Below are positions 5,262-34,203 of a stretch of 64,000 nucleotides of DNA, in pieces. The stretch is from Candidatus Omnitrophota bacterium (GTDB lineage Bacteria > Omnitrophota > Gorgyraeia > Gygaellales > Profunditerraquicolaceae): NCBI GenBank assembly GCA_041650495.1, contig JBAZLB010000004.1, positions 39,281 to 103,280 on the forward strand. The letters are read 5' to 3'. Position numbers and translations under genes: made by a program. How positions within the stretch are numbered: the stretch's first letter is position 1; every line of letters begins with the position of its first letter. Below the pieces are notes generated by a model. That model had not been told where the DNA came from, ran no database searches, and was given only the letters and a program-made list of their open reading frames with translations.

Positions 5262-7806
5262 AACAACAATTAATAATCTGATGGCAATTTTTATTACATT
5301 TTTTCACTTCTTCCCTGATTTTCTCCGCTGTCTCGGAAAACCATATGTCATAAATATCCCTCTCAAGAACATTCCCGATTGAATCCATCTCTTCGCAGAA
5401 CGTAACATTACCTTTCTCATTGATGCTCAGGAATGAATATCCCATATTGCAGGTGATATGCTTACGGATATATTGATTCGGGTCCGCATAGTACTTTTTA
5501 TAATTCACCAGTTGAGAAACGGGATTGCCTAACTTGTGGTATCCGGACATCTTCATTTCAATTAATTTATCAATGATGTCGTGTAACTGCTGCTTGTCCT
5601 GAGGCCATAACGTTTTACTTCCCGGCCTTTTATACCACCCTGCATCTTTTTCATACCCGCGCGGCTGGATCAAGCCTAAGAAATTTATAAGATTAATCTT
5701 TTTATTCCCTTGGACCCATGTTAAGAGCGGAATAACATCATCCAAATTCTCTTGCAGTATTATCATAAGTAAATTTATTTCTGTTTGCGGGGCATAGCGA
5801 TGCAACAATTCTATTGCCTCCATGACTTTAACATAAGACCCGTCTACGCCCCTTATGAAATCATGCCGCTCCTTATTGAGACTATCTAAAGAAAGCGCGA
5901 TTGTCCGTAACCCCGATTCCCCTATAGATTGCGCCTGCTTTTTATCAATTAAATAGCCATTAGAACATACCGCGGTCAAAAACCCGTTATCATTAGCAAA
6001 TCTAATTAAGTCAGTTAAGCCTTCTTTTAAAAACGGTTCTCCGCCGGCAAAATTTATCTGGCAATGGTTATCGGCTACGCGTTTAAAAGCAAGCAAAAAA
6101 TCTTTCCATTGCCCTGATGTAAGTTCTTCATTGCTATCCTGCTTCCAGATTTGACACATCTTACATCTAAAATTACACCTATATACTATTCCTAATGCAC
6201 AAAAACGCGGCCTTATGATTTCCAGGGCTTCTTGGCGGGATAAATGCTTACTATAAGAACCGGAAGACACGCACGCCAGATCGTAACGGCGCTTCTCCCG
6301 CATCGCTTTATCTAGCTCTCTTTTAAGTTCTTCCCGACGGGGGGCCATCTTTAGGGCTTCCTTCAATTCTCTTATAGCTTCATCAAATTGATGCTGTTTT
6401 AAGAATATGCCGCTTAAGCCGATATACGAATCTATTGATCCGGAGGCTATCTGCCTGAAATCTAAATACAGCTGCTTTGCCTCTTCATACCGATTATATT
6501 GTTTATATATACTCGCTAAGCCGTTCAACGCGCTGATATCTCCGGGATCAATATCCGACATTCTCTTATAGGCTGCTTCAGCTCTATCATAGTCTTTTCT
6601 CTCATAACAAAGTTCCGCTAAACAACCTAACGCTGGCTTACTTCTGCTGTCTATCTTAAGAATATCTTCACATAGCTGTTCTGAGGAATCGTATAGTTTG
6701 TTTTCTTTATAGCAGGCCGCAAGCAGTTCCATTGTTTTTATATCTCCGGGAGAGAGGACTAATATTCTTTCATATAAACCTGCGGCTTTGCCGGGTAGCG
6801 TTTGGCTATAATATAAATCAGCGAGCTGCTTAAGCAATGTTATACAAGCAGGCTCTAAACGTAATCCATGATGATAAAGTGCGATTGCTTTATCGTAACC
6901 GCCGTGTCTCTGATAGGCCTGAGCTAATTTCTCCAGCCATACCAATCTCTCCCCGCCCTTGTTAAAGAACGCCTTAATTAATCTTTCGGCTTCTTTAAGC
7001 CGCTGCTGCTGCAATAAATAATTACCTACTGCAGAGATACCCTCGGTAGTGCTCCTGTCAAGCCTCAACCCTTTGCGATAAACCTTGATGCCTTGGCTTG
7101 TCTTGCCCATTTTCACTAAGGCACCGCCGTGTCTCTGATAGGCCTGAGCTAATTTCTCCAGCCATACCAATCTCTCCCCGCCCTTGTTAAAGAACGCCTT
7201 AATTAATCTTTCGGCTTCTTTAAGCCGCTGCTGCTCTAATAAATAATTACCTACTGTAGAGATACCCTCGGTAGTGCTCCTGTCAAGCCTCAACCCTTTG
7301 CGATAAACCTTGATGCCTTGGCTTGTCTTGCCCATTTTCACTAAGGCACCGGCTAACCCTTTATACACAGGACTTCCTGATGGCATGGTCTTTAATGCCT
7401 TGCGAAACATGTTTTTAGCTTCTTTATATTGCCCAGCCATATCGAGTAAAACCCCTAAATTATACTGGGCCCACCCATGATTTTTGTTTATTAGCAATAT
7501 TTCCTGGCTTAAACGTAGAGAATCGGAATATTGTCCTGTTTGTCTGGAAATATCTGCCAAGCCATACAAGGCTGTTTCGTTTTTCGTATCAAGTGCAATG
7601 GCTTCCTTAAAATACTCTGCGGCCTCTGTATATCTGCTTTGTTCTCTTAAAGTTTGCCCCATAAAAATAAAAACATCGGGATCAGAAGATCCTTTGCTAA
7701 GGATTTCTTTAAAACATTTAACGGCCTCAGTATACTCTCCGGCAAAAAAATGCGACCTACCTCTTGTTTTAAGATCGGAATGGGTTGTTTTGGTTTCTAG
7801 TGGCAT
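5218..7806 (-). CDS. TPR-repeat (~520 aa) fused to family-A radical SAM domain
   Basis: 862 aa. The N-terminal half is TPR-like helical repeats with a duplicated 75-aa segment. The C-terminal half carries FCALGIVYRCNFRCKMCQIW (CxxxCxxC), FAGGEPFL and the terminal motif CNKNCHQIINC shared with the five stand-alone family-A paralogs. Confidence 0.8.
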   Translation of the reverse strand: MPLETKTTHSDLKTRGRSHFFAGEYTEAVKCFKEILSKGSSDPDVFIFMGQTLREQSRYTEAAEYFKEAIALDTKNETALYGLADISRQTGQYSDSLRLSQEILLINKNHGWAQYNLGVLLDMAGQYKEAKNMFRKALKTMPSGSPVYKGLAGALVKMGKTSQGIKVYRKGLRLDRSTTEGISTVGNYLLEQQRLKEAERLIKAFFNKGGERLVWLEKLAQAYQRHGGALVKMGKTSQGIKVYRKGLRLDRSTTEGISAVGNYLLQQQRLKEAERLIKAFFNKGGERLVWLEKLAQAYQRHGGYDKAIALYHHGLRLEPACITLLKQLADLYYSQTLPGKAAGLYERILVLSPGDIKTMELLAACYKENKLYDSSEQLCEDILKIDSRSKPALGCLAELCYERKDYDRAEAAYKRMSDIDPGDISALNGLASIYKQYNRYEEAKQLYLDFRQIASGSIDSYIGLSGIFLKQHQFDEAIRELKEALKMAPRREELKRELDKAMREKRRYDLACVSSGSYSKHLSRQEALEIIRPRFCALGIVYRCNFRCKMCQIWKQDSNEELTSGQWKDFLLAFKRVADNHCQINFAGGEPFLKEGLTDLIRFANDNGFLTAVCSNGYLIDKKQAQSIGESGLRTIALSLDSLNKERHDFIRGVDGSYVKVMEAIELLHRYAPQTEINLLMIILQENLDDVIPLLTWVQGNKKINLINFLGLIQPRGYEKDAGWYKRPGSKTLWPQDKQQLHDIIDKLIEMKMSGYHKLGNPVSQLVNYKKYYADPNQYIRKHITCNMGYSFLSINEKGNVTFCEEMDSIGNVLERDIYDIWFSETAEKIREEVKKCNKNCHQIINCCYEEECLGEKDYSAG
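6901..7350. repeat. Direct tandem duplication, 2 x 225 bp, in-frame, inside the TPR region of the TPR-rSAM gene
   Basis: Sequence 6901-7125 is repeated at 7126-7350 with only about 2 mismatches (ctgcaataaa/ctctaataaa; ctgcagag/ctgtagag). In the protein, ...GGALVKMGKTSQGIKVYRKGLRLDRSTTEGIS.VGNYLL.QQRLKEAERLIKAFFNKGGERLVWLEKLAQAYQRHGG appears twice. Confidence 0.85.
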
Positions 7807-7820
7807 ATAAACAGCCTAAA

Positions 7821-8828
7821 TTAATAAATGTACACTTCTGAAGGGTCAAAATTACAATTGACCATGGATTGACAATTCCGTTTGCACTGCGCTATCTTTT
7901 CCCGTATCATTTCCGCTTTTGAGGAATTCCACACGGTGTTAATATCGTCATATTTAATGTTTCCGATCGGTTCCATGTAAAAACATATCCTTATTTCTCC
8001 CGTAGGAGTTATGTTAATGGCCTGGGTGTCAATATGGCACTTTTTCTGCTTAACAAAGTCATTGGGATTATGAAAATATGCTTTAAATACCTGCAGTTGG
8101 GGCAAAGAATTTCCAAGCTTGTTAAACCCGGATTCTTTCATCTTGATAAGCCCGTTCATAATTTTGTCAACTTTTTTAAGGTCTATAGGCCATAAGGAAC
8201 TATACCGGCTGTCAGTATACCAGTGCAAATCTTCTGGTGTACTAAACGGTTGTGTGATAGCCTGAAATCCCATTCCGTCTATCTTGTCATTCTCCTGTAT
8301 CCACCTGACAATATCCACAAGTTCATCAAGGTTTTCATTAGAAATAACGGTGCATATGCCTATCTTTACATCGCTGCTGTATTTATCCAGAAGCTCGATA
8401 GCCCTCATAACCTTCTGATATGCCCCTCTAACACCGCGGAGAGAATCATGGCGGTCTTCCCTGAGACTGTCTAAAGATATATTCACAGTGGTAACGCCTG
8501 AAGCCGCTATGTTCTCTGCCATTGTCTCATCGATAAGGAAGGCGTTAGTAGCAAGTAACGTAACAAAGCCATGTTTATGGGCATAGTTGATTAATTCCAA
8601 TGTTTCCGCACGTGCCAATGGCTCTCCTCCTGCAAAGTTTATTTGGGATTTATCTTTCATAAGAGAACGTAACGAATCAATAAAATACCTCCAGCGCTCT
8701 ATCGTTGGCTCAAGAGGATCCCGGGCCTTGATATCAGATTTCCACTTATAACACATACGACATCGCAAGAAGCAGCTTTCCAATAACGCTATACAGCAAT
8801 AAACAGGAGCTGATATATTTTTTTGCAT
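7821..8828 (-). CDS. Radical SAM protein, family A (MoaA/twitch-like, ~335 aa)
   Basis: N-terminal LLESCFLRCRMCYKW (CxxxCxxC at residues ~17-24), FAGGEPLA, and C-terminal Cys motif CKRNCQSMVNC. Confidence 0.8.
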   Translation of the reverse strand: MQKNISAPVYCCIALLESCFLRCRMCYKWKSDIKARDPLEPTIERWRYFIDSLRSLMKDKSQINFAGGEPLARAETLELINYAHKHGFVTLLATNAFLIDETMAENIAASGVTTVNISLDSLREDRHDSLRGVRGAYQKVMRAIELLDKYSSDVKIGICTVISNENLDELVDIVRWIQENDKIDGMGFQAITQPFSTPEDLHWYTDSRYSSLWPIDLKKVDKIMNGLIKMKESGFNKLGNSLPQLQVFKAYFHNPNDFVKQKKCHIDTQAINITPTGEIRICFYMEPIGNIKYDDINTVWNSSKAEMIREKIAQCKRNCQSMVNCNFDPSEVYIY

Positions 8829-8881
8829 AGGCCCTACGATACCGTCCTTACCATGCAGTGCATTGATAAATACTAACCTAC

Positions 8882-9877
8882 CTACTCAGAGTCTCCATGG
8901 TAATAACAATTGACAAGAAAATGGCAATTTTTATCACACGCCGCAATACGTCTTTTTACCGTATCTGCTTTCTCTGAAAGCCATATATTCTGCATGGTAT
9001 CATCTTTTATGTTTCCTATGTCCCCCATTTCATCGCATAAGGAAACATGGCCATCCCAAGTGATCCTTATGGCATTGTCACCAAGATGGCACCTGCGTGG
9101 TTTTATGAATCCTTGCGGGTTCATTAAGTATAACTTAAATAATTCGAGCTGATATATCGGATTGCCTATTTTGAAGCCATCATGGTGTGACTGTCTTAAC
9201 GCAATCAACTCATCTATAACAAGGTTTGCCGCATTATTATCACTGGGCCATAAACCGGCGTATTCATCCAGAATATGCCACTCCTCAGGCACATGGGCAT
9301 TAAACGGTTTCTGTATTACCTGAAAGATTACGCCGTCTAACTTAGGATGGTTGTAAACCCATTTTGTGAAATATATTATTTCTGAGATGTTAATACCCAT
9401 GATTATCGTAAGGATATTTATGATAGAATCGGGGCAATAACGGTCAATAAGGTCTATTGCCCGCATAGCCCGATCCCAACAGCCTTGCTTGCCTCTCAGA
9501 TAATCATGCGTATACTTATCAAGGCTATCAAGAGAAATACCGATAGTGTTAACCCCTGCCTGCGATATTTCCCTGACCTTATCCTCATCCAATAAATAGG
9601 CATTGGTGGATAGGCAACTTTTAAATCCTAAGTCTTGACAAATCTTAAGGATCCCCAAAAAATTGTGGTTAAGCAGTGGTTCCCCTCCCCCAAAACTAAC
9701 AAAAAACGGGTCTTCTACAAAATCCCGCAGTTCATATAAGAATTTTTTATAGGCCTTAAGATCAAGCCAGTTTGTTTCATGGAATGAACGGGTATCCTGC
9801 CAGATATGGCACATTTTACACCGCAACATACACTGGTGGGATATCGCTATATCGCAATGTCTTGGCTTATATATCAT
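8882..9877 (-). CDS. Radical SAM protein, family A
   Basis: ISHQCMLRCKMCHIW, FGGGEPLL, C-terminal CDKNCHFLVNC. Its start overlaps the upstream gene stop by 4 nt (ATGA coupling). Confidence 0.8.
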   Translation of the reverse strand: MIYKPRHCDIAISHQCMLRCKMCHIWQDTRSFHETNWLDLKAYKKFLYELRDFVEDPFFVSFGGGEPLLNHNFLGILKICQDLGFKSCLSTNAYLLDEDKVREISQAGVNTIGISLDSLDKYTHDYLRGKQGCWDRAMRAIDLIDRYCPDSIINILTIIMGINISEIIYFTKWVYNHPKLDGVIFQVIQKPFNAHVPEEWHILDEYAGLWPSDNNAANLVIDELIALRQSHHDGFKIGNPIYQLELFKLYLMNPQGFIKPRRCHLGDNAIRITWDGHVSLCDEMGDIGNIKDDTMQNIWLSEKADTVKRRIAACDKNCHFLVNCYYHGDSE

Positions 9878-11364
9878 GGATATAGTTGATTAACGTCAGT
9901 GCGTTCAGGAGGAGCATCCTCTTCAAATATTTCAAGATCTAAACATGCATAGACCGGGATACCTAAATCCTCACAGTATTTCACTGCGGTGGTATACCTT
10001 TTCTTCCTGACCTTGTAGGTATTTGTACCATCCAAGGTCATCCAATCAGTATATCCGCGTCCATGAAACATGTACTTGTATTTTAACGGCTCCGCCCTGA
10101 GAGCTGAACCAACAGGTGCCCCGCAAATATTCATACTGCATACCCTATCAATATAGGCAACATTTCTCTTGATATACGCTAACGTTTCCTGGAAATCTTC
10201 CTCTGTTTCTCCCGGATACCCGACAATCAATGCAATATCGTTTCTTATCCCCGCCTCTTTACTGAACCTAAGAAATCTTTCAGCCTCAAAGGCGGTATAT
10301 CCTTTGCCCATAAGTGATAAGACATGGTCAGAAAAACTTTCAAGGCCCAGCGAGAACTCCGTACAGCCCGCTTTTCTTAATTTCAGGAATAACTGCGCAT
10401 CAATTTCTGGCCTTATTTGTGCCTGTCCATACCACTTAACCTGCAATCCCTCATCTACAATACAATCACAAAGCTCTTCAAGAAACTTCAGGTCCGCATT
10501 AAATGCTAAATCATTAAGCCTAAAACAGCTATTATTATACCGACTCTGGTTTAAAACCATTTCTCTTAAAACATGGCCTGCCTTCCGGCAACGATAAGGA
10601 TGTGACAATATTCTATCGCTGCAGAATGTGCAGTTTCGAGTACATCCCTTGCTAAATATGAGCGGGAGCGTAAAATCACAACACAGCATTCCTTCCGTAT
10701 ATAAAGATAAATCAAACCCCTCAAATGTAGGAAATGGGACTGCATCAAGGTCAGTAGGAAGCATGGACTTAATGCAGACTGCCCTGTCCCCCGCGTGGTC
10801 CTTCCACACTCTAAAGATACCCCGATCGGATAACCGCAACTTCCCTTTATCCCTTAGGCCGTTCAATATCTCCAGTAATGCAAATTCTCCGTCTCCTATG
10901 ACAAAATAATCTACGTATCCTTTCACAAAGTCATTTTTTCTTATCTCGTCAAAAAATGTTGCCGGCCCGCCGATGACGATTATTTTATCAGGGGCTTTAT
11001 TCTTTAAAATCCTAAGGATTTGATTTAAAAACGGTATGGAGTCCATTGTAGCCGAAAACCCGATAACCGGCATATCATATGATGCTATTGTATCGCCCAT
11101 GCCTTCAAACAACGGCATATGCCCGTTGCTGGACCGACCCGCCTTCCACCAATGGCTATCATTACCGTTCCACCCCCTTTGCAAAACTCCCGAGTTATAC
11201 AGCTCAATATTTAAATCGCGCACCTCTACCATTATGCCCCTTGATTTTAAAAAGGTAGCCAGATACGCTATACCCAAAGGCGCCACCCGATGATCCCAGG
11301 GGGGCAATTGGATCAACAAGATACCGGGTAATTCTTGCCTCCTTTTCTTAAACAGATTCAGCAT
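9874..11364 (-). CDS. B12-binding domain radical SAM protein (class B)
   Basis: 496 aa. The N-terminal Rossmann-like B12-binding region (VIGFSATMD...IIVIGGPATF) is followed by the rSAM core FSKGCTRNCTFCSD (CxxxCxxC). Confidence 0.75.
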   Translation of the reverse strand: MLNLFKKRRQELPGILLIQLPPWDHRVAPLGIAYLATFLKSRGIMVEVRDLNIELYNSGVLQRGWNGNDSHWWKAGRSSNGHMPLFEGMGDTIASYDMPVIGFSATMDSIPFLNQILRILKNKAPDKIIVIGGPATFFDEIRKNDFVKGYVDYFVIGDGEFALLEILNGLRDKGKLRLSDRGIFRVWKDHAGDRAVCIKSMLPTDLDAVPFPTFEGFDLSLYTEGMLCCDFTLPLIFSKGCTRNCTFCSDRILSHPYRCRKAGHVLREMVLNQSRYNNSCFRLNDLAFNADLKFLEELCDCIVDEGLQVKWYGQAQIRPEIDAQLFLKLRKAGCTEFSLGLESFSDHVLSLMGKGYTAFEAERFLRFSKEAGIRNDIALIVGYPGETEEDFQETLAYIKRNVAYIDRVCSMNICGAPVGSALRAEPLKYKYMFHGRGYTDWMTLDGTNTYKVRKKRYTTAVKYCEDLGIPVYACLDLEIFEEDAPPERTDVNQLYP

Positions 11365-11373
11365 GTCTTATTA

Positions 11374-12381
11374 CTATGTGACAGGTTCACAAATTTTAGG
11401 GAAATCTTTTTGGAATTCATCAAAACAATTTATCAGGTGGTGGCAATTCTTTGTACAGCCGGCGATATCATTTCTTACCTTACCTGCTTTTTCTGAGTAC
11501 CAAACGTCTATAAGGCGGTCGCTCTTAATGTTGCCTATGCGTTCAAAATCATAACATAAATAGATATCCCCGACGGAACTGACCAAAACGCACCTATCAA
11601 GATTACACTGCCTTCTTTTCAAGAACTTCTTGGGATTTCTGTAATATGACTGAAAGGCCAGCAGTTGGCTAACGGGATTCCCGATCTTAAAGCCTTTGTT
11701 TTTTAGACGGATAAGCTCTGCGATGATCTGTATAGTCCTGGCTGGATTCTTAGGCCAGATAAACCCTAAATCACCATCCCACCAATTATCTTCGGGAAAA
11801 GTATTATTTGGCTGCATCGCTGCCATAAAATTTATCGAACCGATCCTTTTATCCTGATGAGCCCATTCAACCAAATCTAAGATCGTGTCTTGATTAATTT
11901 CATAAAATACGCAACACAGGTTTATATAGAGACCCTCGCAATAGGTATGAAGATAGGCAATGGCATCCATGGCCCTGCGATACACGCCAGTAACTCCCCT
12001 TAAATGATCGTGGACCTCTTCTTTTATACTATCCAGCGATATGCTTATCGACTTTAGGCCTGAGCCTGCTATCTTGCGAGCCATCTCTTCATCAATAAGA
12101 TACCCGTTGGAAGCTATCGAGGTATTAAAGCCCTTATCGACACTAAAACGGATAACATCTAATATCCCGTCAAACATTAACGCCTCCCCGCCTCCAAGAT
12201 CCAATTCAAATGGAAAATCAACCATCTGAGCTAGATCAGAAATACATTGCTTCCAATGTACAAGAGAGGGGGCCTGAGAGTAGTTCTTGACATAAATGTC
12301 ATCTTTCCATTTATAGCACATTTTACATCGCAGCATACATTTGTCGGTAATACCAAAACAACAAAACCCCGGTTTAATCAT
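11374..12381 (-). CDS. Radical SAM protein, family A
   Basis: FCCFGITDKCMLRCKMCYKW, LGGGEALM, C-terminal CTKNCHHLINC. Confidence 0.8.
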   Translation of the reverse strand: MIKPGFCCFGITDKCMLRCKMCYKWKDDIYVKNYSQAPSLVHWKQCISDLAQMVDFPFELDLGGGEALMFDGILDVIRFSVDKGFNTSIASNGYLIDEEMARKIAGSGLKSISISLDSIKEEVHDHLRGVTGVYRRAMDAIAYLHTYCEGLYINLCCVFYEINQDTILDLVEWAHQDKRIGSINFMAAMQPNNTFPEDNWWDGDLGFIWPKNPARTIQIIAELIRLKNKGFKIGNPVSQLLAFQSYYRNPKKFLKRRQCNLDRCVLVSSVGDIYLCYDFERIGNIKSDRLIDVWYSEKAGKVRNDIAGCTKNCHHLINCFDEFQKDFPKICEPVT

Positions 12382-12410
12382 ACTGACCCCCTCCTAAACA
12401 CATAGCCATG

Positions 12411-13457
12411 CTATATGGAGAATGGCAGATCCCCTTCAAAGAAACAATTGAGAAGAAAATGGCAATTCTGCCTGCAGTTTCTCACCGCTTCACGCGCCAG
12501 TTTAGCTTTATGAGAATACCACAAATATTCTATGCTATCTTTCGTTATATTGCCTAATTTATCTTGTTGGAAACAGATAAACACATCACCGACAGAGCTA
12601 ACATGGATCGCCCTGGATAAATTACACTCTGAAATTTTTATAAACCGCTCAGGGCATATAAAATACCTCCTGAAAGCCTTAAGCTGCGACAGATGATTAA
12701 CGATTTTCCATCCCTTTCTTTTAAGCTCTATCAAACGGCCTATCAGATCATAAACCTGTTTTATCTCCTGGGGCCAGAGATGACTGAAATCTTTTTGATA
12801 CCACCTGGAATCCATACCGGTATTATTCGGCTGCATCACTGCCATAAAATAAATCCAGTCCAAGCGGTTATCTCTTTGCACGCGCTCAGTTAATTCCAGG
12901 ATATCCCCGGCACTTAGGCTGCTTATCACACAACAGATTCCTTTTTGCAGCTCAGGACAGTATGTATCTAAATAGTCGACCGCCAGCATAACTCTTTTAT
13001 AAACCCCCTCAACGCCCCTTAAGTAATCATGGGTTGTATCTTTAAAGCTGTCTAAAGATAAATTTATGGTTGTAAGCCCCGATTCGGCTATTGCCTTTGC
13101 AAGCGGCTCGTCAATCAAGTAGGCATTTGTAGCAATATTGGTCTTCAACCCTATGTTACCGGCAAATCTTACTAGTTCTAACAACTCTTCCATTAAAAAA
13201 GGCTCACCCCCGCCGAAATTAACCGTAAAACCACTGCCCGCTAATTTACGGATAGAGGCGATTGCATTTCTCCAGTCAGTAACCGTAGGATGGTTATTTC
13301 TCGGGGGCAACGCTGACACATCATCTTTCCATTTAAAGCACATCCGGCACTTTAAAGTGCACCGTTCAGTTACGCTCAGGCAGCAAAAATTTGGCCTTGT
13401 CTGCTGACCGGGGAGATTTTCTAGCCATTTAACCGTATTTATGAATAACTTTCGCAC
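12411..13457 (-). CDS. Radical SAM protein, family A
   Basis: CCLSVTERCTLKCRMCFKW, FGGGEPFLM, C-terminal CRQNCHFLLNCFFEGD. Confidence 0.8.
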   Translation of the reverse strand: MRKLFINTVKWLENLPGQQTRPNFCCLSVTERCTLKCRMCFKWKDDVSALPPRNNHPTVTDWRNAIASIRKLAGSGFTVNFGGGEPFLMEELLELVRFAGNIGLKTNIATNAYLIDEPLAKAIAESGLTTINLSLDSFKDTTHDYLRGVEGVYKRVMLAVDYLDTYCPELQKGICCVISSLSAGDILELTERVQRDNRLDWIYFMAVMQPNNTGMDSRWYQKDFSHLWPQEIKQVYDLIGRLIELKRKGWKIVNHLSQLKAFRRYFICPERFIKISECNLSRAIHVSSVGDVFICFQQDKLGNITKDSIEYLWYSHKAKLAREAVRNCRQNCHFLLNCFFEGDLPFSI

Positions 13458-13460
13458 GGG

Positions 13461-14456
13461 CTATTCCTTTTGAATACCGGACGGCAACAAATTTCGTTTG
13501 AACATCTCTTTCAGAATTACGTTTGCAGCTAATTCATGCCCCTTCACATTAGGATGCAAGCCGTCTCCTATGCTTAATTCACCTACCGTAACTTTGGCAT
13601 TGAGAAAAGTAGGAGTCAAATCCAGAGAAGTTATATGCAAGTCTCTGATGATTTCGCGTATATAAGCATACCTGGTATTATCCTGTTCATTATACGGATC
13701 TTTCATGTAGGGGAATACCGCAACAAAAAATGATACCCCTCTTTCGGCTAAAAGGTCCCGCATTCGAGTTAATGATTCCTTGACTATCCGATAGCACTTT
13801 TCCTTCTCATCGAAATTTTCCCGAAAATATAGGAAGAAAATGATGCGCCGGTAAAGATAAGAATATTTAAACAACAATGGATTGATAAAACCAGCCGCAT
13901 CGTTTCGCGGCCAATAGACTACCGGCCTTCCCTTGTCCTTAATCACCACTGGAGTTACCTGAAAATCGTTTAAGCAAAATTGAAGAAGGACTAAGTCGGG
14001 CTTAAAATTAATACACCTCTGCTGTAAAAACGCTAATTCCTGCGCCGTATTATACCCCGGGACCCCGCAATTCCATATCTCAATATGCCCTGTTTTATCC
14101 TTTAAGGCATCTTCGATAAATTTCACATAAGTCATACCGCCGCCGCCGGTAATAGAATCACCTAATGCTATGATCCTGAATTCAGAGGCCTTTTTTTCTA
14201 TAGTTCGTTCCCTGTCAAATATGCCCAATGAATTTACTTTATATCCCCCGCTGCCTCTGCGGGGAATTAACTCATACCCCATAGCTCTAGACGCCTTTAT
14301 AAGAGTTGGAAGATCGGCGCTGTCATGTTTCCATTCTTCACTTGAAGTATCAAAAAATGGTTGGTAACCAATAGGCTGCAGTATCCGGGCACCCGCCTCT
14401 ATAAGCAGAAGCGAGAGAAAAACTGATACCACCGACAATGCAATATTTTGTTTCAC
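13461..14456 (-). CDS. SGNH/GDSL-family hydrolase (secreted or membrane-anchored)
   Basis: Signal-like N-terminus, block I IIALGDSITGGGG, block V IGDGLHPNVKGHELAANVI. The stop lies 4 nt before the upstream rSAM start. Confidence 0.65.
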   Translation of the reverse strand: MKQNIALSVVSVFLSLLLIEAGARILQPIGYQPFFDTSSEEWKHDSADLPTLIKASRAMGYELIPRRGSGGYKVNSLGIFDRERTIEKKASEFRIIALGDSITGGGGMTYVKFIEDALKDKTGHIEIWNCGVPGYNTAQELAFLQQRCINFKPDLVLLQFCLNDFQVTPVVIKDKGRPVVYWPRNDAAGFINPLLFKYSYLYRRIIFFLYFRENFDEKEKCYRIVKESLTRMRDLLAERGVSFFVAVFPYMKDPYNEQDNTRYAYIREIIRDLHITSLDLTPTFLNAKVTVGELSIGDGLHPNVKGHELAANVILKEMFKRNLLPSGIQKE

Positions 14457-14465
14457 GTCTTATCC

Positions 14466-16199
14466 TTATCGTAATATCTTCAACAAAGAGATAAAAGCCC
14501 GCTGCGCCAAATCACTCTCATACTTCAATTGAACTTCCGGGACAGATTTTATTGCACCCGTATCTGCAAAAAGATACTGTAGATCGCCTTTTAATCTCTG
14601 CCGGGTTATTACAATAAGATAATCGTTTTTAGTTACCGCTTGGAGAAAATCCGGGGATGATCTCCAAAAAGTCTCTACCCGGTATTTTTTCTGCAAGAAA
14701 ACCCTGATTAAATGCCCCATACGCATACTCATATCAGCGACCCACATCCCACGGAACCGCGGCGACTCTCCATCAAAAATAATTATACCCGGGACATAGT
14801 TTAAACCGGAATTATTATCATAATCTATGGTTTCGGCAATATGCCTAGCTGCCTCAATAAAATTTGATTTGACAGGCCGATGTGCGATAATCCCTTCTTC
14901 TAAATTCTCAAGGTAATGACGCCGAGAATAAGAAAAATACGAATAAAACAGTACAGTTATTATGCCCAAGGTCACTATGCTGTATTCCTTCCATTGCTGC
15001 TGTTTTAAAAAACGCTCAAGAAAAAAACCTGAACTTAAGGCAAAAAGAGGCAAAAGCGGCACTATAAAACTTCCCCATTTGATATGAAACAGCGTCAAAA
15101 GTATATAGCTCACACAAAACCATACCCCAAAAGATAACCGGGTTTGAAAGGATAACGCCCTGTCCTTCAATAGCCAAACTAAAGATAAGGCCCCGAGCAG
15201 GAAAAATAACGGGGAGGTGTAGTACATTATTTCCATGATGTAGAACAAAAAAGTATTTATGTTTATCCCCGCGTTAATTGTCTGGGTGCACGGACAAAAG
15301 GCATCTTGTGAGGCAAAAAGAAAAAGCTCTTTCCTCCCGTCAGCGACACTGCCGACCCAATTGCTTGATTTGAATACCAGGCTTTTACATGCCTCTATAA
15401 ATCCGTCCTTAAGATTCAAAAAAACATGCGCATAATTATTATCAAAATAAAGACCGAAAAATATCGCTGCAAGAAATAAAAAAATTACCGCATCCAATAT
15501 ATGCCTTGCCCTTAACTTAGGATCCAACAAAACAATCCCCGCGTGTAAACAGAATAAAGGGATAAAGAATACCAGATAAAGTCCTCCCGATAACACGCCG
15601 CAGATAAAAATAAAAGCTAAGAACACGGAGCGCAATACGGCCGGCATATACTTCCAGCGGAGAAAAATAAGTATAGAAATAAGCACAAAGAACGTAACAA
15701 GCAATGCAGAGTTTGTTTTCCGGGAAAGGCCGACCATGCCGGGGTAAAATGATAAGATAAGGGCTGACCTTATTCCTATTTGCTCACTAAAAATAACCTT
15801 GCCGAATATATATGTTGCAACAAGTACCAGCATAAACTGCAAAAATAAAACAATATTGATTAAAAATAATTTATGGCCGCCCGAAAGAGGCGCCATAATA
15901 GGAAAGGCAACGGCTAAAGATGCCAAATTAAAGTTAATTGCGGAGAAGGCATAGCCAAAATGGCTTACTTTTAGGAAATCCATGGTCTTAAATAATTTTT
16001 CCGCCGCAGACAAACGGTCATTAGCGATCATATCGCTATATTCAAATGCATTCTCTTCATGCCATACCGAATAACAGCCGTGCTGTATATAACCATCTTT
16101 TGAAAACCAGAAGATGTTATTGCAGAAAAGAAATAATATGAAAACAGCTGCGCTGATTCTTCTGTCGTGCAGGATTTGCTTAACGCTATTATGCGGCAT
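14466..16199 (-). CDS. Polytopic integral membrane protein; possible GT-C-type (ArnT/PMT-like) glycosyltransferase or polymerase
   Basis: 577 aa with 10 or more hydrophobic helices throughout and a C-terminal soluble region. No catalytic motif was recognised. The call rests only on architecture and context (glycan genes). Confidence 0.35.
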   Translation of the reverse strand: MPHNSVKQILHDRRISAAVFILFLFCNNIFWFSKDGYIQHGCYSVWHEENAFEYSDMIANDRLSAAEKLFKTMDFLKVSHFGYAFSAINFNLASLAVAFPIMAPLSGGHKLFLINIVLFLQFMLVLVATYIFGKVIFSEQIGIRSALILSFYPGMVGLSRKTNSALLVTFFVLISILIFLRWKYMPAVLRSVFLAFIFICGVLSGGLYLVFFIPLFCLHAGIVLLDPKLRARHILDAVIFLFLAAIFFGLYFDNNYAHVFLNLKDGFIEACKSLVFKSSNWVGSVADGRKELFLFASQDAFCPCTQTINAGININTFLFYIMEIMYYTSPLFFLLGALSLVWLLKDRALSFQTRLSFGVWFCVSYILLTLFHIKWGSFIVPLLPLFALSSGFFLERFLKQQQWKEYSIVTLGIITVLFYSYFSYSRRHYLENLEEGIIAHRPVKSNFIEAARHIAETIDYDNNSGLNYVPGIIIFDGESPRFRGMWVADMSMRMGHLIRVFLQKKYRVETFWRSSPDFLQAVTKNDYLIVITRQRLKGDLQYLFADTGAIKSVPEVQLKYESDLAQRAFISLLKILR

Positions 16200-16231
16200 G
16201 GATCGGCCTACTGCGAAGTATGATTATCGTT

Positions 16232-17278
16232 TCATATAACCTGGAACGGATAATCACCTTCAAAAAAACAATTTAAAAGATGATGGCAGTTTCTTTTGCA
16301 ATTTATTATATTATTTCTAACGGCGCATGCCTTCTTAGAATACCAGGCCATAGCCAGGTCATCATGCATGATATTGCCTATCCTTTCCCACTCATAGCAT
16401 ATGTATATATTGCCAATTGCATCCACATGGACTGCGCGATCCAAATTACAGGCTGTCTTCTTTACGAATCTATCGGGGGAATCAAAATATTGTTTAAACG
16501 CTTCCAGCTGACAAAATTGGTTATTTATCTTAGACCCCTGTTTTTTCATCCCGATTAAACGATCTATAACGGTTGTTATCCGTGCGGTATCGTCAGGCCA
16601 TAAATACTGGAATTCTTCCCGGTACCAGCGAGGATTAGGCCTGGTATTATTCGGCTGCATCGCCGCCATAAAATAAACCCATTTAATCCGCGGATGCTTA
16701 TTCACCCATTCCGCAACCGATACAACTTCATCCATATTAATCTTGTATATGACACAACAGATAATAATTTCAAACTCTCCCGGGCAATACTTATCGAGAT
16801 ACTCAATGGCATCCATGACTTTATGGTATACCCCCGGCACTCCACGTAAATAATCATGCGTAGACGGATTCATGCTATCCAGCGAAATATTAATGCTCGA
16901 CAGCCCGGACCTTCCTATTCTGCGAGCCATAGGTTCATCAATCAAGCAAGCGTTGCTGGCGATGTTAGTACGCAAACCGTTCTCTGCAGCAAAATGCACG
17001 ATATCCAATAGCCCTTCTAATAGAAGCGCTTCCCCCCCGCCAAAGTTTATAAGAAAATCCCTGCCCGCTATTGAGCGCAACGACGATATAGCTCTTTTCC
17101 ATAAGGTTATATCCGGTTTCGGTATGTCCCTGGGGACATTAAGGTCGGGTCTCCACTTTTGACACATTTTGCAGCGTAAAAAACACTCATCGACTACGCC
17201 AAAACAACAGAAACCAGGCCTTAATGTAGCCCGGAAATCCATCTTGACATCCTCGCTGCTATTGATTTGTCCGCTCAT
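16232..17278 (-). CDS. Radical SAM protein, family A
   Basis: FCCFGVVDECFLRCKMCQKW, FGGGEALLL, C-terminal CKRNCHHLLNCFFEGD. This is the closest paralog of 12411..13457. Confidence 0.8.
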   Translation of the reverse strand: MSGQINSSEDVKMDFRATLRPGFCCFGVVDECFLRCKMCQKWRPDLNVPRDIPKPDITLWKRAISSLRSIAGRDFLINFGGGEALLLEGLLDIVHFAAENGLRTNIASNACLIDEPMARRIGRSGLSSINISLDSMNPSTHDYLRGVPGVYHKVMDAIEYLDKYCPGEFEIIICCVIYKINMDEVVSVAEWVNKHPRIKWVYFMAAMQPNNTRPNPRWYREEFQYLWPDDTARITTVIDRLIGMKKQGSKINNQFCQLEAFKQYFDSPDRFVKKTACNLDRAVHVDAIGNIYICYEWERIGNIMHDDLAMAWYSKKACAVRNNIINCKRNCHHLLNCFFEGDYPFQVI

Positions 17279-17293
17279 GGAAGATATATTATC

Positions 17294-18502
17294 CTAAAAC
17301 CACTCCACCGTGGCTAAGGTTTTCAACAGCCTGACTTGTACTGGGCTGAGTTTATTTATCTTTTGATGCATGATCATATTCCTTCCTAAGTCATCGCAAC
17401 TTTTATAACAACCGATTTTCTTACCGGGGTCATTGCCTATAAAAGAAAGTAAATCATGGTCTTTTACTTTCGACTGCATGCATCTGCGGAACATCCGCTG
17501 TTTTGCATTATTCCATATTTTATCAAAATTATCTTTGTATAAATTCCCTATCGGGATCCTATGTGATTTAAGGCAGGAATTGACATTGCCATCAGCCAAA
17601 ACCCGGGCAAAAAGCCACCCAACATAACAGGGGATACTATCAATAAAACCGCGGTCATACTCTGCGGCACCTGCGTATTCGCTCTCTACGCGCCTCATAA
17701 ATTGTTCAAAATTAGAAATAATCAGCCGGCCTTTCTGAGTACAATATTCCTTATTCTCTTTCATAAGCCTGCACATCGCCAAGACATCATCAGCTTGGCC
17801 CTGCTGAAATAATAACGTATCGGTACACCCGGGGATAGTATCAACTACAGTAAATTCAACTTCTTCAGAAGCTGTTTCCAAGCAAAACTCGGCCATTTTA
17901 AGCAATTCTTGGTAATTTAAGTTAGAGATGACATTATAGATCTTTACTTTAGGAAAACACCCCTTGGTTCTATTGAGCAAGGTGAGTAGCTGCCTTATGC
18001 GTATAAAGTCATCCTGCGTTTTATTAGGATGTGTTTTTACATAAGTTTCCGCTGTAGCCGCCCATAAGCTTACAACAAGATAATCGAGTTTTATCCGTTT
18101 GAATGCCGCTAACATATCTTCGTCCACTAAAGTAAAATTTGTATGTAGGTGACACTTAAATCCCCGTTTCTTAGCATAAGAGATTATCTCTATGGCCGCC
18201 GGGTGCATTAAAGGTTCCCCTCCCCCGCTGAAATATAATTCCGCAGTATGCATTTTCTTAAGGGTATCTATCAAGCGTTTAGCCACTCGGTAATCAATAC
18301 TCTGCCGTTTAACGGCTTGGGGGGTCGCTTTATCTTTCAGTAATGGCGAGTTACACCAACAGGCAATGCAATTATTGTTGCAGTCATTCGTTAAATCAAT
18401 CTGGACGCAATCCGGCCCTTTATACGCATATTCGCCATTAAATATGCCCATAATAGTCATGGCGTTTCTTAGTGTCTTGCCGCAAATGAGGCTTTTATTC
18501 AT
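17294..18502 (-). CDS. Radical SAM protein, family B-like (402 aa, SPASM-like C-terminus)
   Basis: DLTNDCNNNCIACW (CxxxCxxC), FSGGGEPLMHP. The C-terminus IPCYVGWLFARVLADGNVNSC...GCYKSCDD is alignable to the C-termini of 3534..5261 and 21179..22636. Confidence 0.7.
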   Translation of the reverse strand: MNKSLICGKTLRNAMTIMGIFNGEYAYKGPDCVQIDLTNDCNNNCIACWCNSPLLKDKATPQAVKRQSIDYRVAKRLIDTLKKMHTAELYFSGGGEPLMHPAAIEIISYAKKRGFKCHLHTNFTLVDEDMLAAFKRIKLDYLVVSLWAATAETYVKTHPNKTQDDFIRIRQLLTLLNRTKGCFPKVKIYNVISNLNYQELLKMAEFCLETASEEVEFTVVDTIPGCTDTLLFQQGQADDVLAMCRLMKENKEYCTQKGRLIISNFEQFMRRVESEYAGAAEYDRGFIDSIPCYVGWLFARVLADGNVNSCLKSHRIPIGNLYKDNFDKIWNNAKQRMFRRCMQSKVKDHDLLSFIGNDPGKKIGCYKSCDDLGRNMIMHQKINKLSPVQVRLLKTLATVEWF

Positions 18503-18518: not shown

Positions 18519-20981
18519 TTATTGTTGAATATTCAGTAAATACTTTATGCTTTTTATGACGGTACGCACAAAACCTTTTGATTTTATATTATTCCTAAAG
18601 GCAACCCGTAATTCCCGGTCAAACGGTATATTATAGAAAGAGCGCCGCGAGCGCATATAGTATTTCCACTTCTTCAATGCTTCGTCTTTGGCATGTTCTA
18701 AATCTTCCGGAGAAAGAAATTCGGTTCTGATGACGCTTCTTGATGCCCCGTCATAACAAGACCAGTCTTTCGAGATAATATGCCCCTTCTTTTCCAGCGC
18801 CTCATAATATTCTGTCCCCGGGTAAGGAGTCATAATGGAGAACTGCAGGGAATCAGGCTTAAAACTTAACGCGTAGTCTATTGTCCTTTTTATGGTATCC
18901 TGTGTTTCCCCGGGCAGGCCAAAGGCAAAAGTGAGGTGTATCTTTATCCCTAAGGCTTGAGTCGCATATATCATACGTTCCGCATGCCGCAAATCCATGC
19001 CCTTCTTCGCGTTATCAAGCAGCTTCTGTTCTGCGGACTCTAATCCATACTTTACTGCGTATAATCCGGATTGTTTCATCGCAAGAAGCATTTCTTCATC
19101 CATAGTATCCGCGCGGGCCATAATCGCCCAAGGCACAACCAAGTTTCTCTCCCGGATCTCCCCGCAAAACTTTAATACATTTTCTTTGTCAATATTGAAG
19201 GTATCATCGTCAAAATAAATCGACTTAAAATTACGTTCTTTTACCAGGTATTCCATCTCATCGACAACAGCGGCGGGACTGCGGACCCGGTAGCGGTTGC
19301 TATTATACATGAGCTGCGGCCAGGCGCAAAAAATGCATTGGAAAGGACACCCCCGGCTTGCAACCATCTGAACACTAGGAAAAGCGATCTTCCCGGGCGC
19401 ATCTTTATACCGTTCCATACATAATTGTTCTCTTAATGGCCATGGCAAATCATCCAAATCCTCAAGTAAGGCTCGCGCAGGGGTGATCCTGACAGTATTG
19501 TTTTCCCGATAAAGGATTCCTGATACGCCCTGCAGACTTCTGCCGTTCTGTATGGCTTGGAATAATTCAAATGCCGCGTATTCATATTCACCGACAATAA
19601 CAAAATCTATAAAATTGTTCTCGGCCAGGAAAGATGGCTGCCTGATATTAAAGTCTAGCCCGCAAACAGCTATTTTTGTATGTTTTCCTGATATTTGCTT
19701 TAAGATTTCCAGGTCATTCTTCAAAGAGGGGGTAGAGACCTCCGCAACCAACAGTTCCGGCTCAAGCTCATTCACCAGCCTTACAAATTCTCCTTCTTCG
19801 ATCTGCTCAGCTATGGCGTCAATTATTCTTACGCTAACGCCTCTTTCCAAAAAGACAGCTGCGGAATAAGCCAAAAAGAACGGGAAAGGAAGATACGCCT
19901 CTTCGCCAGCGTCTTTTATATGCGGCCATCGAGACCCTGCCCTGACTCCCCATCTATTCCCCTGTTTCCAAGGCAGGTTTATTAACACTACCTTCACAGG
20001 CTTTAGGACATTCGTTAAATATTTCTTATTCATCTTCTCTTCTATGAATGGCAGCCGTTGGCGGTATAATCTCTTCTTGGAATCAAGCATATGTTGATCG
20101 ATTATTTTTTCATCTTGAATTATGTGTATGCTATTTGACAAAATATTCCGGCTCATGCCAGCCGCATAAAAATCCCGCGGACTATGCGGCTTAACCTGAA
20201 TTAATAATGCGCGTAAATTCGCGCTATAATCACTATTCCTGATAATAGGCCTTATGTCTTCCTTTGGGCTATCCGCCTCCAAAATAATCGCTGGTTTATA
20301 CTCATTATTGCAAAACGTGCTCCGCACTCCCAAAGAACGCGAGGAAAGATTCCAAAAATTTATATCCTGCCATCCTTCTTGCGTAGGTTTTATCGGTGGA
20401 AATGTCCCCCCTTCATAAGAACTTATCCAGCCGGTATAATCTGAAGATACCAAAAGAGCCGCTTCCTTTTCTCCGAGAGAAATATTTCTTTTAGGGGTTA
20501 TGTCTATCTTCCAATCGATAAGCCTCTCTCCTTGCACCGTAATCTGCCAAGACTGTTTAAGCGCAAAGAAAGGCCAGGTGAGTATTATTTCCGTATAACA
20601 AGGCAAAACACGTAGTACCTCCCAGCGCGCCTGATTCGAATATAGCCTGCCGCGCATAAAACGCTTATCATTCAGCACAGTTACAAAACCCGGGGCTTGA
20701 GTAAGCTTTATGTCATTCCAAAATAAATCTATACACCTACGCGCAGGATGAATCGATAACTTTAATCTACCGGCAATTAATAATATTGTCCGGGCGTCTT
20801 CTTGGCAACCAAGCTTAGAACTAATAAACCGCGAGAATATATACCGCAGGCCACCATTACCTATGGTATAGACGATAAACGCAAAGGCGCGATAAAAAGC
20901 ATAGAACACCCCCTTATGGCGAAGGTAATATAAGAATCTTCCGGCTATAAAATTGATAAATCCTTGTTTATGTATTTTCAT
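18519..20981 (-). CDS. B12-binding radical SAM protein (class B) with ~330-aa N-terminal domain of unknown function
   Basis: 820 aa. A B12-binding-like region (VLINLPW...IAVCGLDFN) is followed by ASRGCPFQCIFCAWP (CxxxCxxC). The N-terminal third has no recognisable motif. Confidence 0.7.
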   Translation of the reverse strand: MKIHKQGFINFIAGRFLYYLRHKGVFYAFYRAFAFIVYTIGNGGLRYIFSRFISSKLGCQEDARTILLIAGRLKLSIHPARRCIDLFWNDIKLTQAPGFVTVLNDKRFMRGRLYSNQARWEVLRVLPCYTEIILTWPFFALKQSWQITVQGERLIDWKIDITPKRNISLGEKEAALLVSSDYTGWISSYEGGTFPPIKPTQEGWQDINFWNLSSRSLGVRSTFCNNEYKPAIILEADSPKEDIRPIIRNSDYSANLRALLIQVKPHSPRDFYAAGMSRNILSNSIHIIQDEKIIDQHMLDSKKRLYRQRLPFIEEKMNKKYLTNVLKPVKVVLINLPWKQGNRWGVRAGSRWPHIKDAGEEAYLPFPFFLAYSAAVFLERGVSVRIIDAIAEQIEEGEFVRLVNELEPELLVAEVSTPSLKNDLEILKQISGKHTKIAVCGLDFNIRQPSFLAENNFIDFVIVGEYEYAAFELFQAIQNGRSLQGVSGILYRENNTVRITPARALLEDLDDLPWPLREQLCMERYKDAPGKIAFPSVQMVASRGCPFQCIFCAWPQLMYNSNRYRVRSPAAVVDEMEYLVKERNFKSIYFDDDTFNIDKENVLKFCGEIRERNLVVPWAIMARADTMDEEMLLAMKQSGLYAVKYGLESAEQKLLDNAKKGMDLRHAERMIYATQALGIKIHLTFAFGLPGETQDTIKRTIDYALSFKPDSLQFSIMTPYPGTEYYEALEKKGHIISKDWSCYDGASRSVIRTEFLSPEDLEHAKDEALKKWKYYMRSRRSFYNIPFDRELRVAFRNNIKSKGFVRTVIKSIKYLLNIQQ

Positions 20982-21044
20982 TATGATAAAAAGGCGGTGT
21001 CTATGTTTAACTTTTTGCAGATTCTTTGTGCTTTATCTTATCTT

Positions 21045-21107
21045 TCAACCCACAAGAACCCTATCCGCCACATAATATACTTTAAGCCCCGGTAAAAAGA
21101 GTAACAT
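21045..21107 (-). CDS. Candidate 20-aa small ORF (MLLFLPGLKVYYVADRVLVG) in the only sizeable intergenic gap of the rSAM array
   Basis: ATG preceded by GAGGG at -6 to -10. It lies in the 197-bp gap between the family-B rSAM and the class-B rSAM. There is no Cys and no homolog support. It is a speculative precursor-peptide or leader candidate. Confidence 0.15.
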   Translation of the reverse strand: MLLFLPGLKVYYVADRVLVG

Positions 21108-21178
21108 AAGCCGCCCTCTTTATAATGCTTTTTCCATCTCTGCAATAGTGTTTCTCGCATGGTAAGTATATTTATTTA

Positions 21179-33528: not shown

Positions 33529-33529
33529 T

Positions 33530-34201: not shown

Positions 34202-34203
34202 AA

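Follow-up and report, generated by a model that had tools for sequence, protein, structure and literature searches.

Tandem paralogs of a twitch/SPASM-type radical SAM family in a predicted surface-glycan operon of Omnitrophota

We analysed a stretch of 64,000 nucleotides from a Candidatus Omnitrophota bacterium (GenBank assembly GCA_041650495.1, contig JBAZLB010000004.1, positions 39,281 to 103,280; hereafter the window), which harbors six copies of a compact (~335 aa) radical S-adenosylmethionine (SAM) family that we call F1. We report that F1 forms a separate and as yet unnamed clade among the twitch/SPASM-type radical SAM enzymes, and that its genes in the window accompany those of a Wzm/Wzt-type ATP-binding cassette (ABC) exporter. 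From this association and the following lines of evidence, we consider it somewhat probable that every F1 paralog is dedicated to a single radical tailoring reaction, carried out on a lipid-linked glycan ahead of its export. The radical SAM superfamily and the Wzm/Wzt export pathway are already known; what is unusual is the occurrence of colinear radical SAM arrays in Wzm/Wzt loci, and of a module common to the tailoring enzymes and the exporter. A full-text literature search returned no description of the F1 family, its arrays, this type of locus or this module (module X, below). The Omnitrophota papers that it found mention radical SAM enzymes only in passing, and a co-mention of radical SAM and wzt in Xanthomonas turned out to be irrelevant.

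The F1 family of radical SAM enzymes

The six F1 copies are all encoded on the minus strand. Their order in the operon is F1e (16232..17278, 348 aa), the first of the array; F1d (12411..13457, 348 aa, GTG start); F1c (11374..12381, 335 aa); F1b (8882..9877, 331 aa), the start of which overlaps by 4 nt the stop of the gene encoding the B12-binding radical SAM protein B12a; F1a (7821..8828, 335 aa), the copy used for structure modelling; and F1f (5218..6219), which is the C-terminal domain (~residues 530-862) of an 862-aa tetratricopeptide repeat (TPR) fusion protein (5218-7806). A sequence-only reading of this region had delineated these open reading frames (ORFs) and proposed that the five proteins and the C-terminus of the fusion align end to end. 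Our MAFFT alignment bears this out, in that the six domains align over their full length, with 37-43% identity to the first sequence, 34-50% pairwise identity (HMM match columns) and 55 invariant columns; they thus form one family rather than unrelated subfamilies. The shared blocks listed in that reading are all present. The invariant residues comprise C19/C23/M25/C26 (CxxxCxMC), G67-G68-E69, S118-L-D-S121, H127-D128 and R131-G132, and, in the C-terminal part, C264, G277, C282, C315, N318, C319, N324 and C325.

We then measured conservation on 263 non-redundant F1 members drawn from 69 loci. The radical SAM cysteines are conserved in 100% of them, C264, C282, C315 and C319 in 99%, G277 in 99% and C325 in 96%. 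Hence, the C-terminal motif anticipated by the sequence-only reading survives proper gap placement as far as its cysteines are concerned, while its histidine is not invariant (the copy at 7821 reads CKRNCQSMVNC) and its L/I positions vary. The complete C-terminal pattern is C264-x12-G277-x4-C282, a helix, then C315-x3-C319-x5-C325, and the chain ends ~10 residues further on.

Regarding family assignment, all six F1 match the Pfam radical SAM family PF04055 with 60-89 bits (cutoff 29.5), and five match SPASM (PF13186) with 25-37 bits (cutoff 21.5), the copy at 16232 falling just under with 21.2 bits; in the 862-aa fusion, the Radical_SAM and SPASM matches of F1f cover residues 541-697 and 786-842, respectively. 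No curated NCBIfam model came near its cutoff. The best NCBIfam match for four of the six F1 is GeoRSP TIGR04303 (73-98 bits, cutoff 400), followed by the NirJ and AhbD models (up to 96 bits, cutoffs 500-650), MoaA TIGR02666 (51-73 bits, cutoff 284.05) and PqqE (39-72 bits, cutoff 381), while BlsE TIGR04466 is among the listed matches for two of the six only (36-45 bits, cutoff 400). Because all these scores are well below the cutoffs, F1 stands outside every named family, and its membership of MoaA, PqqE, NirJ or AhbD is ruled out.

These scores also bear on a housekeeping role in cofactor synthesis or maturation (molybdenum cofactor, PQQ, heme d1/AhbD-type, or a metalloenzyme maturase), which the sequence-only reading had already disfavored. 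The NirJ, AhbD and MoaA models do reach E values of 1e-14 to 1e-27, but with 50-96 bits against cutoffs of 284-650. Furthermore, no moa, pqq, ahb or nir genes were found nearby in the window regions examined, six to eleven copies occur per locus, and the genes are embedded in what looks like a glycan-export operon. On family scores and gene context, this possibility appears effectively refuted.

The position of F1 within the SkfB/PqqE/MoaA (SPASM/twitch) clade, as first suggested by its N-terminal motif, is corroborated by the following findings. First, in addition to the Pfam matches, the best sequence matches in the PDB are SkfB (top), GDGT-MAS and MoaA. Second, the AlphaFold2 (AF2) model of F1a (pLDDT 94.1, pTM 0.92) possesses a beta/alpha barrel core like that of radical SAM structures, and its best Foldseek match in the PDB is BlsE (7VOB; E 6.5e-15, TM 0.71/0.73), followed by SkfB, anSME, SuiB, DesII, PqqE, MoaA and viperins, with 14-20% identity throughout. 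Third, the profile of the F1 C-terminal domain has a sole match among solved proteins, which falls in the twitch domain of BtrN (E 1.4e-4) and aligns both hairpin cysteines. Fourth, the model of F1a shows a hairpin (E270-273/E278-280) and a helix (H303-313) ahead of the cysteine triad.

A full SPASM domain is defined by the seven-cysteine motif CX9-15GX4C - CX2CX5CX3C - C and holds two auxiliary clusters. We rejected such an arrangement for F1 on the cysteine count, with five conserved C-terminal cysteines and no seventh. What F1 displays is a two-cysteine beta-hairpin, a helix, further cysteines and truncation thereafter, as in the twitch domain, which is known as a shortened form of SPASM with a single auxiliary cluster (PMC9012708). 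Judging from this pattern, the five C-terminal cysteines most likely hold one auxiliary [4Fe-4S] cluster.

The duplications that gave rise to the array are old, in agreement with the sequence-only reading, which had argued against a recent amplification. Four of the six window copies are closer to orthologues from other species (F1c 78%, F1e 71%, F1a 63%, F1d 62%) than to their window paralogs (34-50%), the fifth, F1b, having its best outside orthologue at 50% only, in a colinear position of locus L004. F1e represents the most widely conserved orthogroup, usually located directly after the gene of the second-family protein F2b, and its orthologues (71% in L020, 68% in L003) contrast with the ≤50% identity to the window paralogs. 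The orthologues of F1c share 78% (L020), 76% (L003), 74% (L043) and 71% (L004) identity with it, those of F1a 62-73%, and the best orthologue of F1d 62% (L020); proteins identical to those of the window, which is part of a metagenomic contig, are encoded on the ENA contig ERZ27247363 k141_822032 and on a Logan contig, F1c being among them and also present in an Omnitrophota metagenome-assembled genome at NCBI. The order of the F1 genes is also kept between the window and L004. Similarly, among the colinear Omnitrophota arrays of 9-11 F1 copies, the comparison of L026 with L037, L045 and L030 yields position-by-position reciprocal best hits at ~47-71% identity, versus ≤46% for second-best hits. 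Therefore, the F1 duplications are ancient, and each copy belongs to a separate orthogroup.

F1 is not confined to the window. A profile search retrieved 323 relatives at E ≤ 1e-10, and an exhaustive search of 1.84 billion cluster representatives returned 1,249 F1 representatives of 50%-identity clusters at E ≤ 1e-30. The 69 loci with F1 (one genome per species) are labelled as follows: Omnitrophota, 35; archaea, 14, mostly DPANN (Woese-, Nano- and Aenigmatarchaeota); labels beginning with 'uncultured Planctomycet', 8; Candidate Phyla Radiation (CPR)/Patescibacteria, 5; Deltaproteobacteria-type, 4; 'uncultured bacterium', 2; Margulisiibacteriota, 1. Tandem F1 arrays are the rule among them, so that the six-fold expansion noticed at first holds for the window and is much larger elsewhere, up to a maximum of 11 full-length copies within a 21-kb locus (L055, L030). 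Across genomes, the array length ranges from 1 to at least 11 F1, which looks like optional tailoring, by analogy with serotype variation.

Exporter, module X and candidate substrates of the array

The operon encodes an ABC-2 permease together with a Wzt/TagH-type nucleotide-binding domain (NBD). The Wzm-type permease (25535..26317, minus strand, 260 aa; Pfam ABC2_membrane) has PDB matches to the Wzm of A. aeolicus (E 1.5e-19) and to TarG, and a weak match to the NCBIfam galactan Wzm/RfbD model. The Wzt-type ATPase (22636..25518, minus strand, 960 aa) starts with an NBD, the PDB matches of which are the Wzt of A. aeolicus (E 1.4e-60), then TarH/TagH and the Mtb galactan Wzt. On these similarities, the transporter is identified as a true Wzm/Wzt polysaccharide exporter, and the operon is classed, from its transporter and accessory genes, as an ABC-transporter-dependent surface-glycan locus.

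The 720-residue C-terminal extension of the Wzt protein consists of three copies (residues 253-365, 495-603 and 750-866) of a ~110-aa domain with the pattern W..P..Q.W...Y..W, which we call module X. One N-terminal copy is also present in the B12-binding radical SAM protein B12b (residues 84-195; nt ~20397-20732, minus strand), and BLASTP of the B12b N-terminus against the Wzt C-terminus aligned it with the three repeats at 5e-14, 5e-6 and 2e-3. In the related loci, a profile detected up to nine copies on Wzt, one to three at the N-terminus of the second-family radical SAM protein F2a and one or two on B12b. Module X is a previously undescribed module: it matched no Pfam or PDB sequence even at E ≤ 10, and a word-indexed protein search with four of its copies returned nothing. 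A search with the whole Wzt C-terminus yielded eight homologues, which were used for modelling, and the resulting AF2 model (22 domain copies) is all-beta, with a pLDDT of 87. The predicted fold is the galactose-mutarotase-like supersandwich of carbohydrate-active enzymes (CAZymes). It is known that a carbohydrate-binding domain (CBD) located C-terminally to the Wzt NBD enables exporters to recognize their polymer (PMC9445017). The presence of module X on the exporter as well as on radical SAM enzymes encoded with it suggests a common binding partner, and the fold of the module suggests that this partner is a glycan.

The gene content of the operon is worth considering in this respect. In addition to the six F1 counted by the sequence-only reading, there are five further radical SAM genes of two other families, which it had overlooked: three F2 (a second SPASM-type family) and two B12-binding proteins, i.e., eleven radical SAM genes in total. 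The window locus otherwise possesses one intact GT4 glycosyltransferase (GT) gene, one fragmented GT2 gene and no WecA-type gene, and no nucleotidyltransferase, dehydratase, aminotransferase or nucleotide-sugar genes occur in the operon. This ratio of eleven radical SAM genes to one intact GT gene, together with the lack of nucleotide-sugar genes, favors the tailoring of one backbone over the production of many different donor sugars.

Taken as a whole, glycan tailoring could proceed as follows. A simple polyprenol-linked glycan would be assembled at the cytoplasmic face by a few glycosyltransferases. The F2 proteins and the HpnJ-like B12b would dock on it through module X, the carbohydrate-binding-like module that they have in common. 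Each F1 would abstract one specific sugar C-H hydrogen with its 5'-deoxyadenosyl radical. To resolve the ensuing radical, an F1 enzyme would use oxidation to the auxiliary cluster, for which BtrN is the precedent, decarboxylation, known from BlsE, or else epimerisation or dehydration; DesII, NeoN and AviX12 are precedents for deamination or epimerisation. The B12 enzymes would add methyl groups or rearrange rings. Recognition of the finished polymer by the three module X copies of Wzt would then lead to its export, and the SGNH enzymes and a 577-aa membrane protein may complete it outside the cytoplasm.

Several points weigh against this proposal. The glycan substrate is inferred, as are the polymer-level stage, the chemistry of each step and the binding of an auxiliary cluster, and five cysteines alone do not tell whether one or two clusters bind. 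A match to a beta-sandwich fold is no proof of sugar binding, the profile did not detect module X in the archaeal loci, the window F1 proteins are themselves devoid of module X, and SGNH/GDSL proteins can also be lipases. Finally, three features point to peptides: the presence of the conserved basic mini-ORF PEP beside the array in 12 loci; the peptide maturases SkfB and GeoRSP among the nearest sequence relatives of F1; and the fusion of one F1 to TPR repeats, a type of domain that usually binds proteins or peptides.

PEP is a 40-aa basic mini-ORF (MRETLLQRWKKHYKEGGLCYSFYRGLKYIMWRIGFLWVER; 21038..21160, minus strand) located in the 198-nt gap between F2c and B12b. Its profile retrieved copies in 11 other loci at 89-112 bits, the window copy scoring 49.5 bits (examples are L017 9739-9882, L024 5256-5402, L026 8768-8911, L030 7622-7768 and L033 ~8660-8801), and the first F1 gene usually follows PEP directly. 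Members of this family are 40-49 aa long, aromatic-rich and charged (+6 to +11), with the consensus M-ETxWQKFxKHCKxGGLFYAxYRGFKYxxWR...GIDWxQFS, and correspond to no NCBIfam family. No other conserved small-ORF family emerged from the scan of every gap of at least 90 nt in the 69 loci, which leaves PEP as the only plausible one. Its motif is also found within enzymes: B12b carries it N-terminally in the window and in L003, the L003 protein having it in its C-terminal tail as well, and F2b homologues bear it at their N-terminus. The hydrophobic moment of PEP (0.35-0.58) and its charge are compatible with an interfacial helix, without proving it; PEP might serve as a peptide substrate or, alternatively, as a docking or interfacial helix.

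If PEP were a precursor, the locus would mature a ribosomally synthesised and post-translationally modified peptide (RiPP), as in the case of streptide, triceptides and polytheonamide. Each SPASM/twitch or B12 enzyme would install one cross-link, epimerisation or methylation, and the ABC-2 pump would export the product or confer immunity. Besides the three features just mentioned, PEP is rich in W/Y/F, K/R and Cys, the residues of known radical SAM cross-links, and the best NCBIfam match of B12a is a RiPP C-methyltransferase subfamily. We nevertheless regard RiPP maturation as distinctly unlikely. PEP as a general substrate was rejected because it is absent from many long arrays (L037, L045, L023, L028 and L035, with 8-9 F1 each) and because its motif is embedded in enzymes, an unexpected place for a substrate. 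Moreover, the CxxxCxxC motif of F1 begins at residue 12-40, which leaves no room for a RiPP recognition element (RRE) or other N-terminal domain; an equivalog-level score is missing for F1 as well. Lastly, the transporter is specifically Wzm/Wzt-like, the fold of module X is of CAZyme type, and the neighbors in the related loci include WecA-like, Glf-like and GT proteins.

Another possibility is that F1 proteins act at the precursor level, on soluble nucleotide sugars or a sugar nucleoside, in a multistep pathway that would supply one exotic donor sugar, or a small number of them, for later polymerisation. In favor of this possibility, the substrates of all the closest folds (BlsE, DesII, viperin and MoaA) are small sugars or nucleotides, the F1 proteins are compact and carry no module X, and a fixed colinear order fits a linear pathway. 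On the other hand, the operon is devoid of nucleotidyltransferase, dehydratase and aminotransferase genes, arrays of 1 to at least 11 copies fit optional tailoring better than one linear pathway, and the partner radical SAM enzymes carry polymer-type binding modules. We consider precursor-level chemistry unlikely, though the strongest of the competitors of polymer tailoring.

The array might also modify membrane or polyprenyl lipids (Tes-, HpnJ- or ladderane-type chemistry), with the SGNH 'lipases' and the ABC-2 pump handling the lipid, which would suit host-lipid scavengers. The radical SAM core of F1 matches Tes/GDGT-MAS, B12b resembles HpnJ and, weakly, the 'ladderane' B12 radical SAM family, SGNH/GDSL proteins are encoded in the operon, and the family is distributed in DPANN, CPR and Omnitrophota. 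However, these matches are far under the family cutoffs and reflect only the generic radical SAM core, and in the case of HpnJ itself the target is the sugar part of a hopanoid. Considering also that the transporter is nearest to Wzm/Wzt and TarGH, that module X has a CAZyme-type fold and that GT and WecA-like proteins are among the neighbors, lipid remodelling appears very improbable.

Returning to glycan tailoring, a bolder version of it can be formulated, namely that the colinear arrays operate as a polymer-editing assembly line for sugars, the glycan counterpart of proteusin maturation. The starting material would be a lipid-linked homopolymer or disaccharide repeat of simple structure, requiring very few nucleotide sugars and held by module X. 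Site-specific radical reactions in a set order (epimerisation, oxidation, decarboxylation, deoxygenation, C-methylation, ring contraction) would turn it into a complex surface glycan, and this system would have spread between Omnitrophota, CPR and DPANN. We offer this version as a speculation that is possible but rather doubtful.

Remaining genes of the operon and of the window

All long ORFs in the first 28 kb of the window are on the minus strand and separated by gaps of 0-54 nt or small overlaps, forming a co-directional operon of ~28 kb that runs from 28121 down to 1208. The operon begins with an SGNH-TPR fusion (27069-28121) and a TPR protein (26314-27015), followed by the permease, the ATPase, F2c (21179..22636, 485 aa), PEP, B12b (18519..20981, 820 aa), F2b (17294..18502, 402 aa) and F1e. 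B12b, with its PEP-like N-terminal motif, scores 263 bits against the HpnJ model TIGR03471 (cutoff 577.6). Next come the 577-aa polytopic membrane protein (14466..16199), an SGNH/GDSL hydrolase with an N-terminal membrane anchor (13461..14456, 331 aa), F1d, F1c, B12a (9874..11364, 496 aa), F1b, F1a, the TPR-F1f fusion and F2a (3534..5261, 575 aa, with an N-terminal extension). The hydrolase and B12a are thus interleaved in the F1 array. The best NCBIfam score of B12a is 113 bits, under the cutoff of 282. The 577-aa protein has no Pfam or NCBIfam match except PMT_2 at E = 5.2, which is not significant; that it might be GT-C-like is only a guess. The operon ends with an SGNH-like protein (2502-3458), a 42-aa transmembrane (TM) mini-ORF (2390-2518), a GT4 glycosyltransferase of exopolysaccharide type (1208-2389) and a secreted or anchored protein with a GH2-type sandwich domain, the start part of which (1..1194) is in the window before the 712-aa frame runs off it.

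Components of this operon recur with F1 in the related loci. This is the case of the B12 radical SAM proteins (71 genes in 46 loci), the ABC pair, SGNH proteins and GT4s matching the window GT4. By sequence inspection only, we also noticed WecA/MraY-type phosphoglycosyl transferase-like proteins in seven loci, a Glf-like flavoprotein in ten, and GT2s.

The N-terminal region of the TPR-F1f fusion (6220..7806) matches many TPR families in Pfam, and its gene carries a 225-bp tandem duplication (2.0 copies, 98% identical) at 6898-7351. The version of this fusion on the ENA contig is 787 aa long, i.e., 75 aa shorter than the window protein (862 aa), a difference that is either a strain polymorphism or an assembly artefact. 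Other fusion polypeptides exist elsewhere, of the types F1-F1, F1-F1-F1 (P0129, 1,034 aa), F1(partial)-module X-F1 and F2-F1. The entries P0129-P0135, P0137, P0138 and P0278 may be genuine fusions or the product of merged gene calls; in the former case, they indicate that paralogs act together in a complex.

The TM mini-ORF belongs to a family of 39-45 aa with one TM helix and the ending ...IFPGG/N, conserved in three loci (the window, L016 12549-12686 and L018 12698-12817); its stop lies exactly one codon ahead of the GT4 start codon (ATG). The GT2 gene (~28278-29100, minus strand), located at the locus head, is fragmented by in-frame stop codons, as in FFY-TAG-DLDIAWRAY, where the intact L016 homologue (DFFFLGEDFDLAWRAKKRGW) leads one to expect an acidic residue. 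Only the residues at Pfam profile positions 65-167 share one ORF, and this GT2 is probably a pseudogene.

Beyond the operon lies a trehalose module (32314-37262, minus strand) beside an MscS-like channel gene. It comprises a TreT-like GT (32314-33528), a DUF5752 protein (33530-34201), a trehalose phosphatase (34204-35073) and a Cache-fused GT20 trehalose-6-phosphate synthase (35025-37262), and looks like an osmoprotection island adjoining the glycan locus. Two matches to the nhaA-I (Na+-type) riboswitch were found at 32176-32226 and 38366-38421, both on the minus strand, with 46.7 and 43.8 bits (gathering score 37), one upstream of an Rnf/Nqr-subunit gene and the other upstream of an MscS-like channel gene. 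The G+C content is 0.38-0.44 over the glycan/radical SAM locus and its neighbors (1-40000), and 0.46-0.51 from the V-type ATPase genes on (40001-64000); such a low G+C is typical of variable surface-polysaccharide regions.

Significance and comparison with known systems

To our knowledge, only a handful of sugar-acting radical SAM enzymes have been characterised (BtrN, DesII, BlsE, AprD4, NeoN, AviX12 and HpnJ), each catalysing a single step of an antibiotic or lipid pathway. The F1 array and its recurrence in other bacteria and archaea of very small cell size (Omnitrophota, CPR and DPANN) suggest an unexplored radical chemistry for decorating surface sugars. If true, these loci encode a large set of such reactions on carbohydrates, with 6-11 or more dedicated paralogs acting together in one cell-envelope locus. 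Their characterisation would give a function to a sizeable piece of the radical SAM 'dark matter', define a new glycan-binding module coupling tailoring to export, and offer a lead to the cell-surface chemistry of Omnitrophota, CPR and DPANN, where host attachment is central and the biochemistry is almost blank. In these reduced-genome lineages, the cell surface is the interface with hosts or prey. Even the conservative reading leaves a clean new subfamily, defined by its diagnostic motif and its conserved genomic signature.

Among known enzymes, the best fold match of F1 is BlsE (7VOB), the cytosylglucuronate decarboxylase of the blasticidin S pathway, which acts on the sugar ring of a nucleoside and is of similar size (~330-345 aa). 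The two have in common a GGEP motif, the unusual Met of CxxxCxMC and, towards the C-terminus, a cysteine triad, which in BlsE lies near residue 320 (PMC3715490). They differ by their low identity (18%), by the spacing of the triad (CxCxxC in BlsE, CxxxCx5C in F1) and by their context, a single gene in a nucleoside-antibiotic cluster versus a tandem array in a Wzm/Wzt locus.

BtrN (4M7T), a 2-deoxy-scyllo-inosamine dehydrogenase and the twitch archetype, shares with F1 the two-cysteine hairpin and the following helix. It holds one auxiliary [4Fe-4S] cluster and acts on a carbohydrate-like (aminocyclitol) substrate (PMC9012708). BtrN has four auxiliary cysteines (hairpin pair and CxxC), F1 has five (hairpin pair and CxxxCx5C); furthermore, the cores are very divergent, and BtrN is a single-copy antibiotic gene. 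MoaA, the GTP 3',8-cyclase, belongs to the same broad clade, with ~330 aa and a twitch-type C-terminal cluster domain (PMC9012708). Unlike F1, it has a different cysteine pattern, a molybdenum cofactor gene context that is lacking around F1, and not the six copies of the window.

The SPASM maturases (anSME, SuiB, PqqE, SkfB and GeoRSP TIGR04303) resemble F1 by their Pfam SPASM and Radical_SAM matches and their HDxxRG and GGE motifs, and are among its top sequence and fold matches. In contrast to them, F1 proteins lack the full seven-cysteine motif, end ~10 residues past the last cysteine, and have neither an RRE or peptide-binding N-terminal domain nor an obligatory precursor peptide that we could find. 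In proteusin (polytheonamide) maturation, several SPASM-type and B12 radical SAM enzymes are encoded together, as in the present loci, where they may likewise edit a single polymer. The analogy is only conceptual, since the substrate there is a ribosomal peptide with a leader, whereas here the context points to a glycan.

Finally, the transporter pair of the window resembles the Wzm/Wzt exporters of O-antigen, teichoic acid and galactan, its NBD and permease being nearest to those of A. aeolicus, with C-terminal all-beta modules on Wzt. Unlike the known jelly-roll CBD of Wzt proteins, module X has no Pfam or PDB sequence match, is predicted to adopt a galactose-mutarotase-like fold and occurs in up to nine repeats. 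Above all, and uniquely with respect to the known Wzt CBDs, module X is common to the exporter and to radical SAM enzymes of the same operon.

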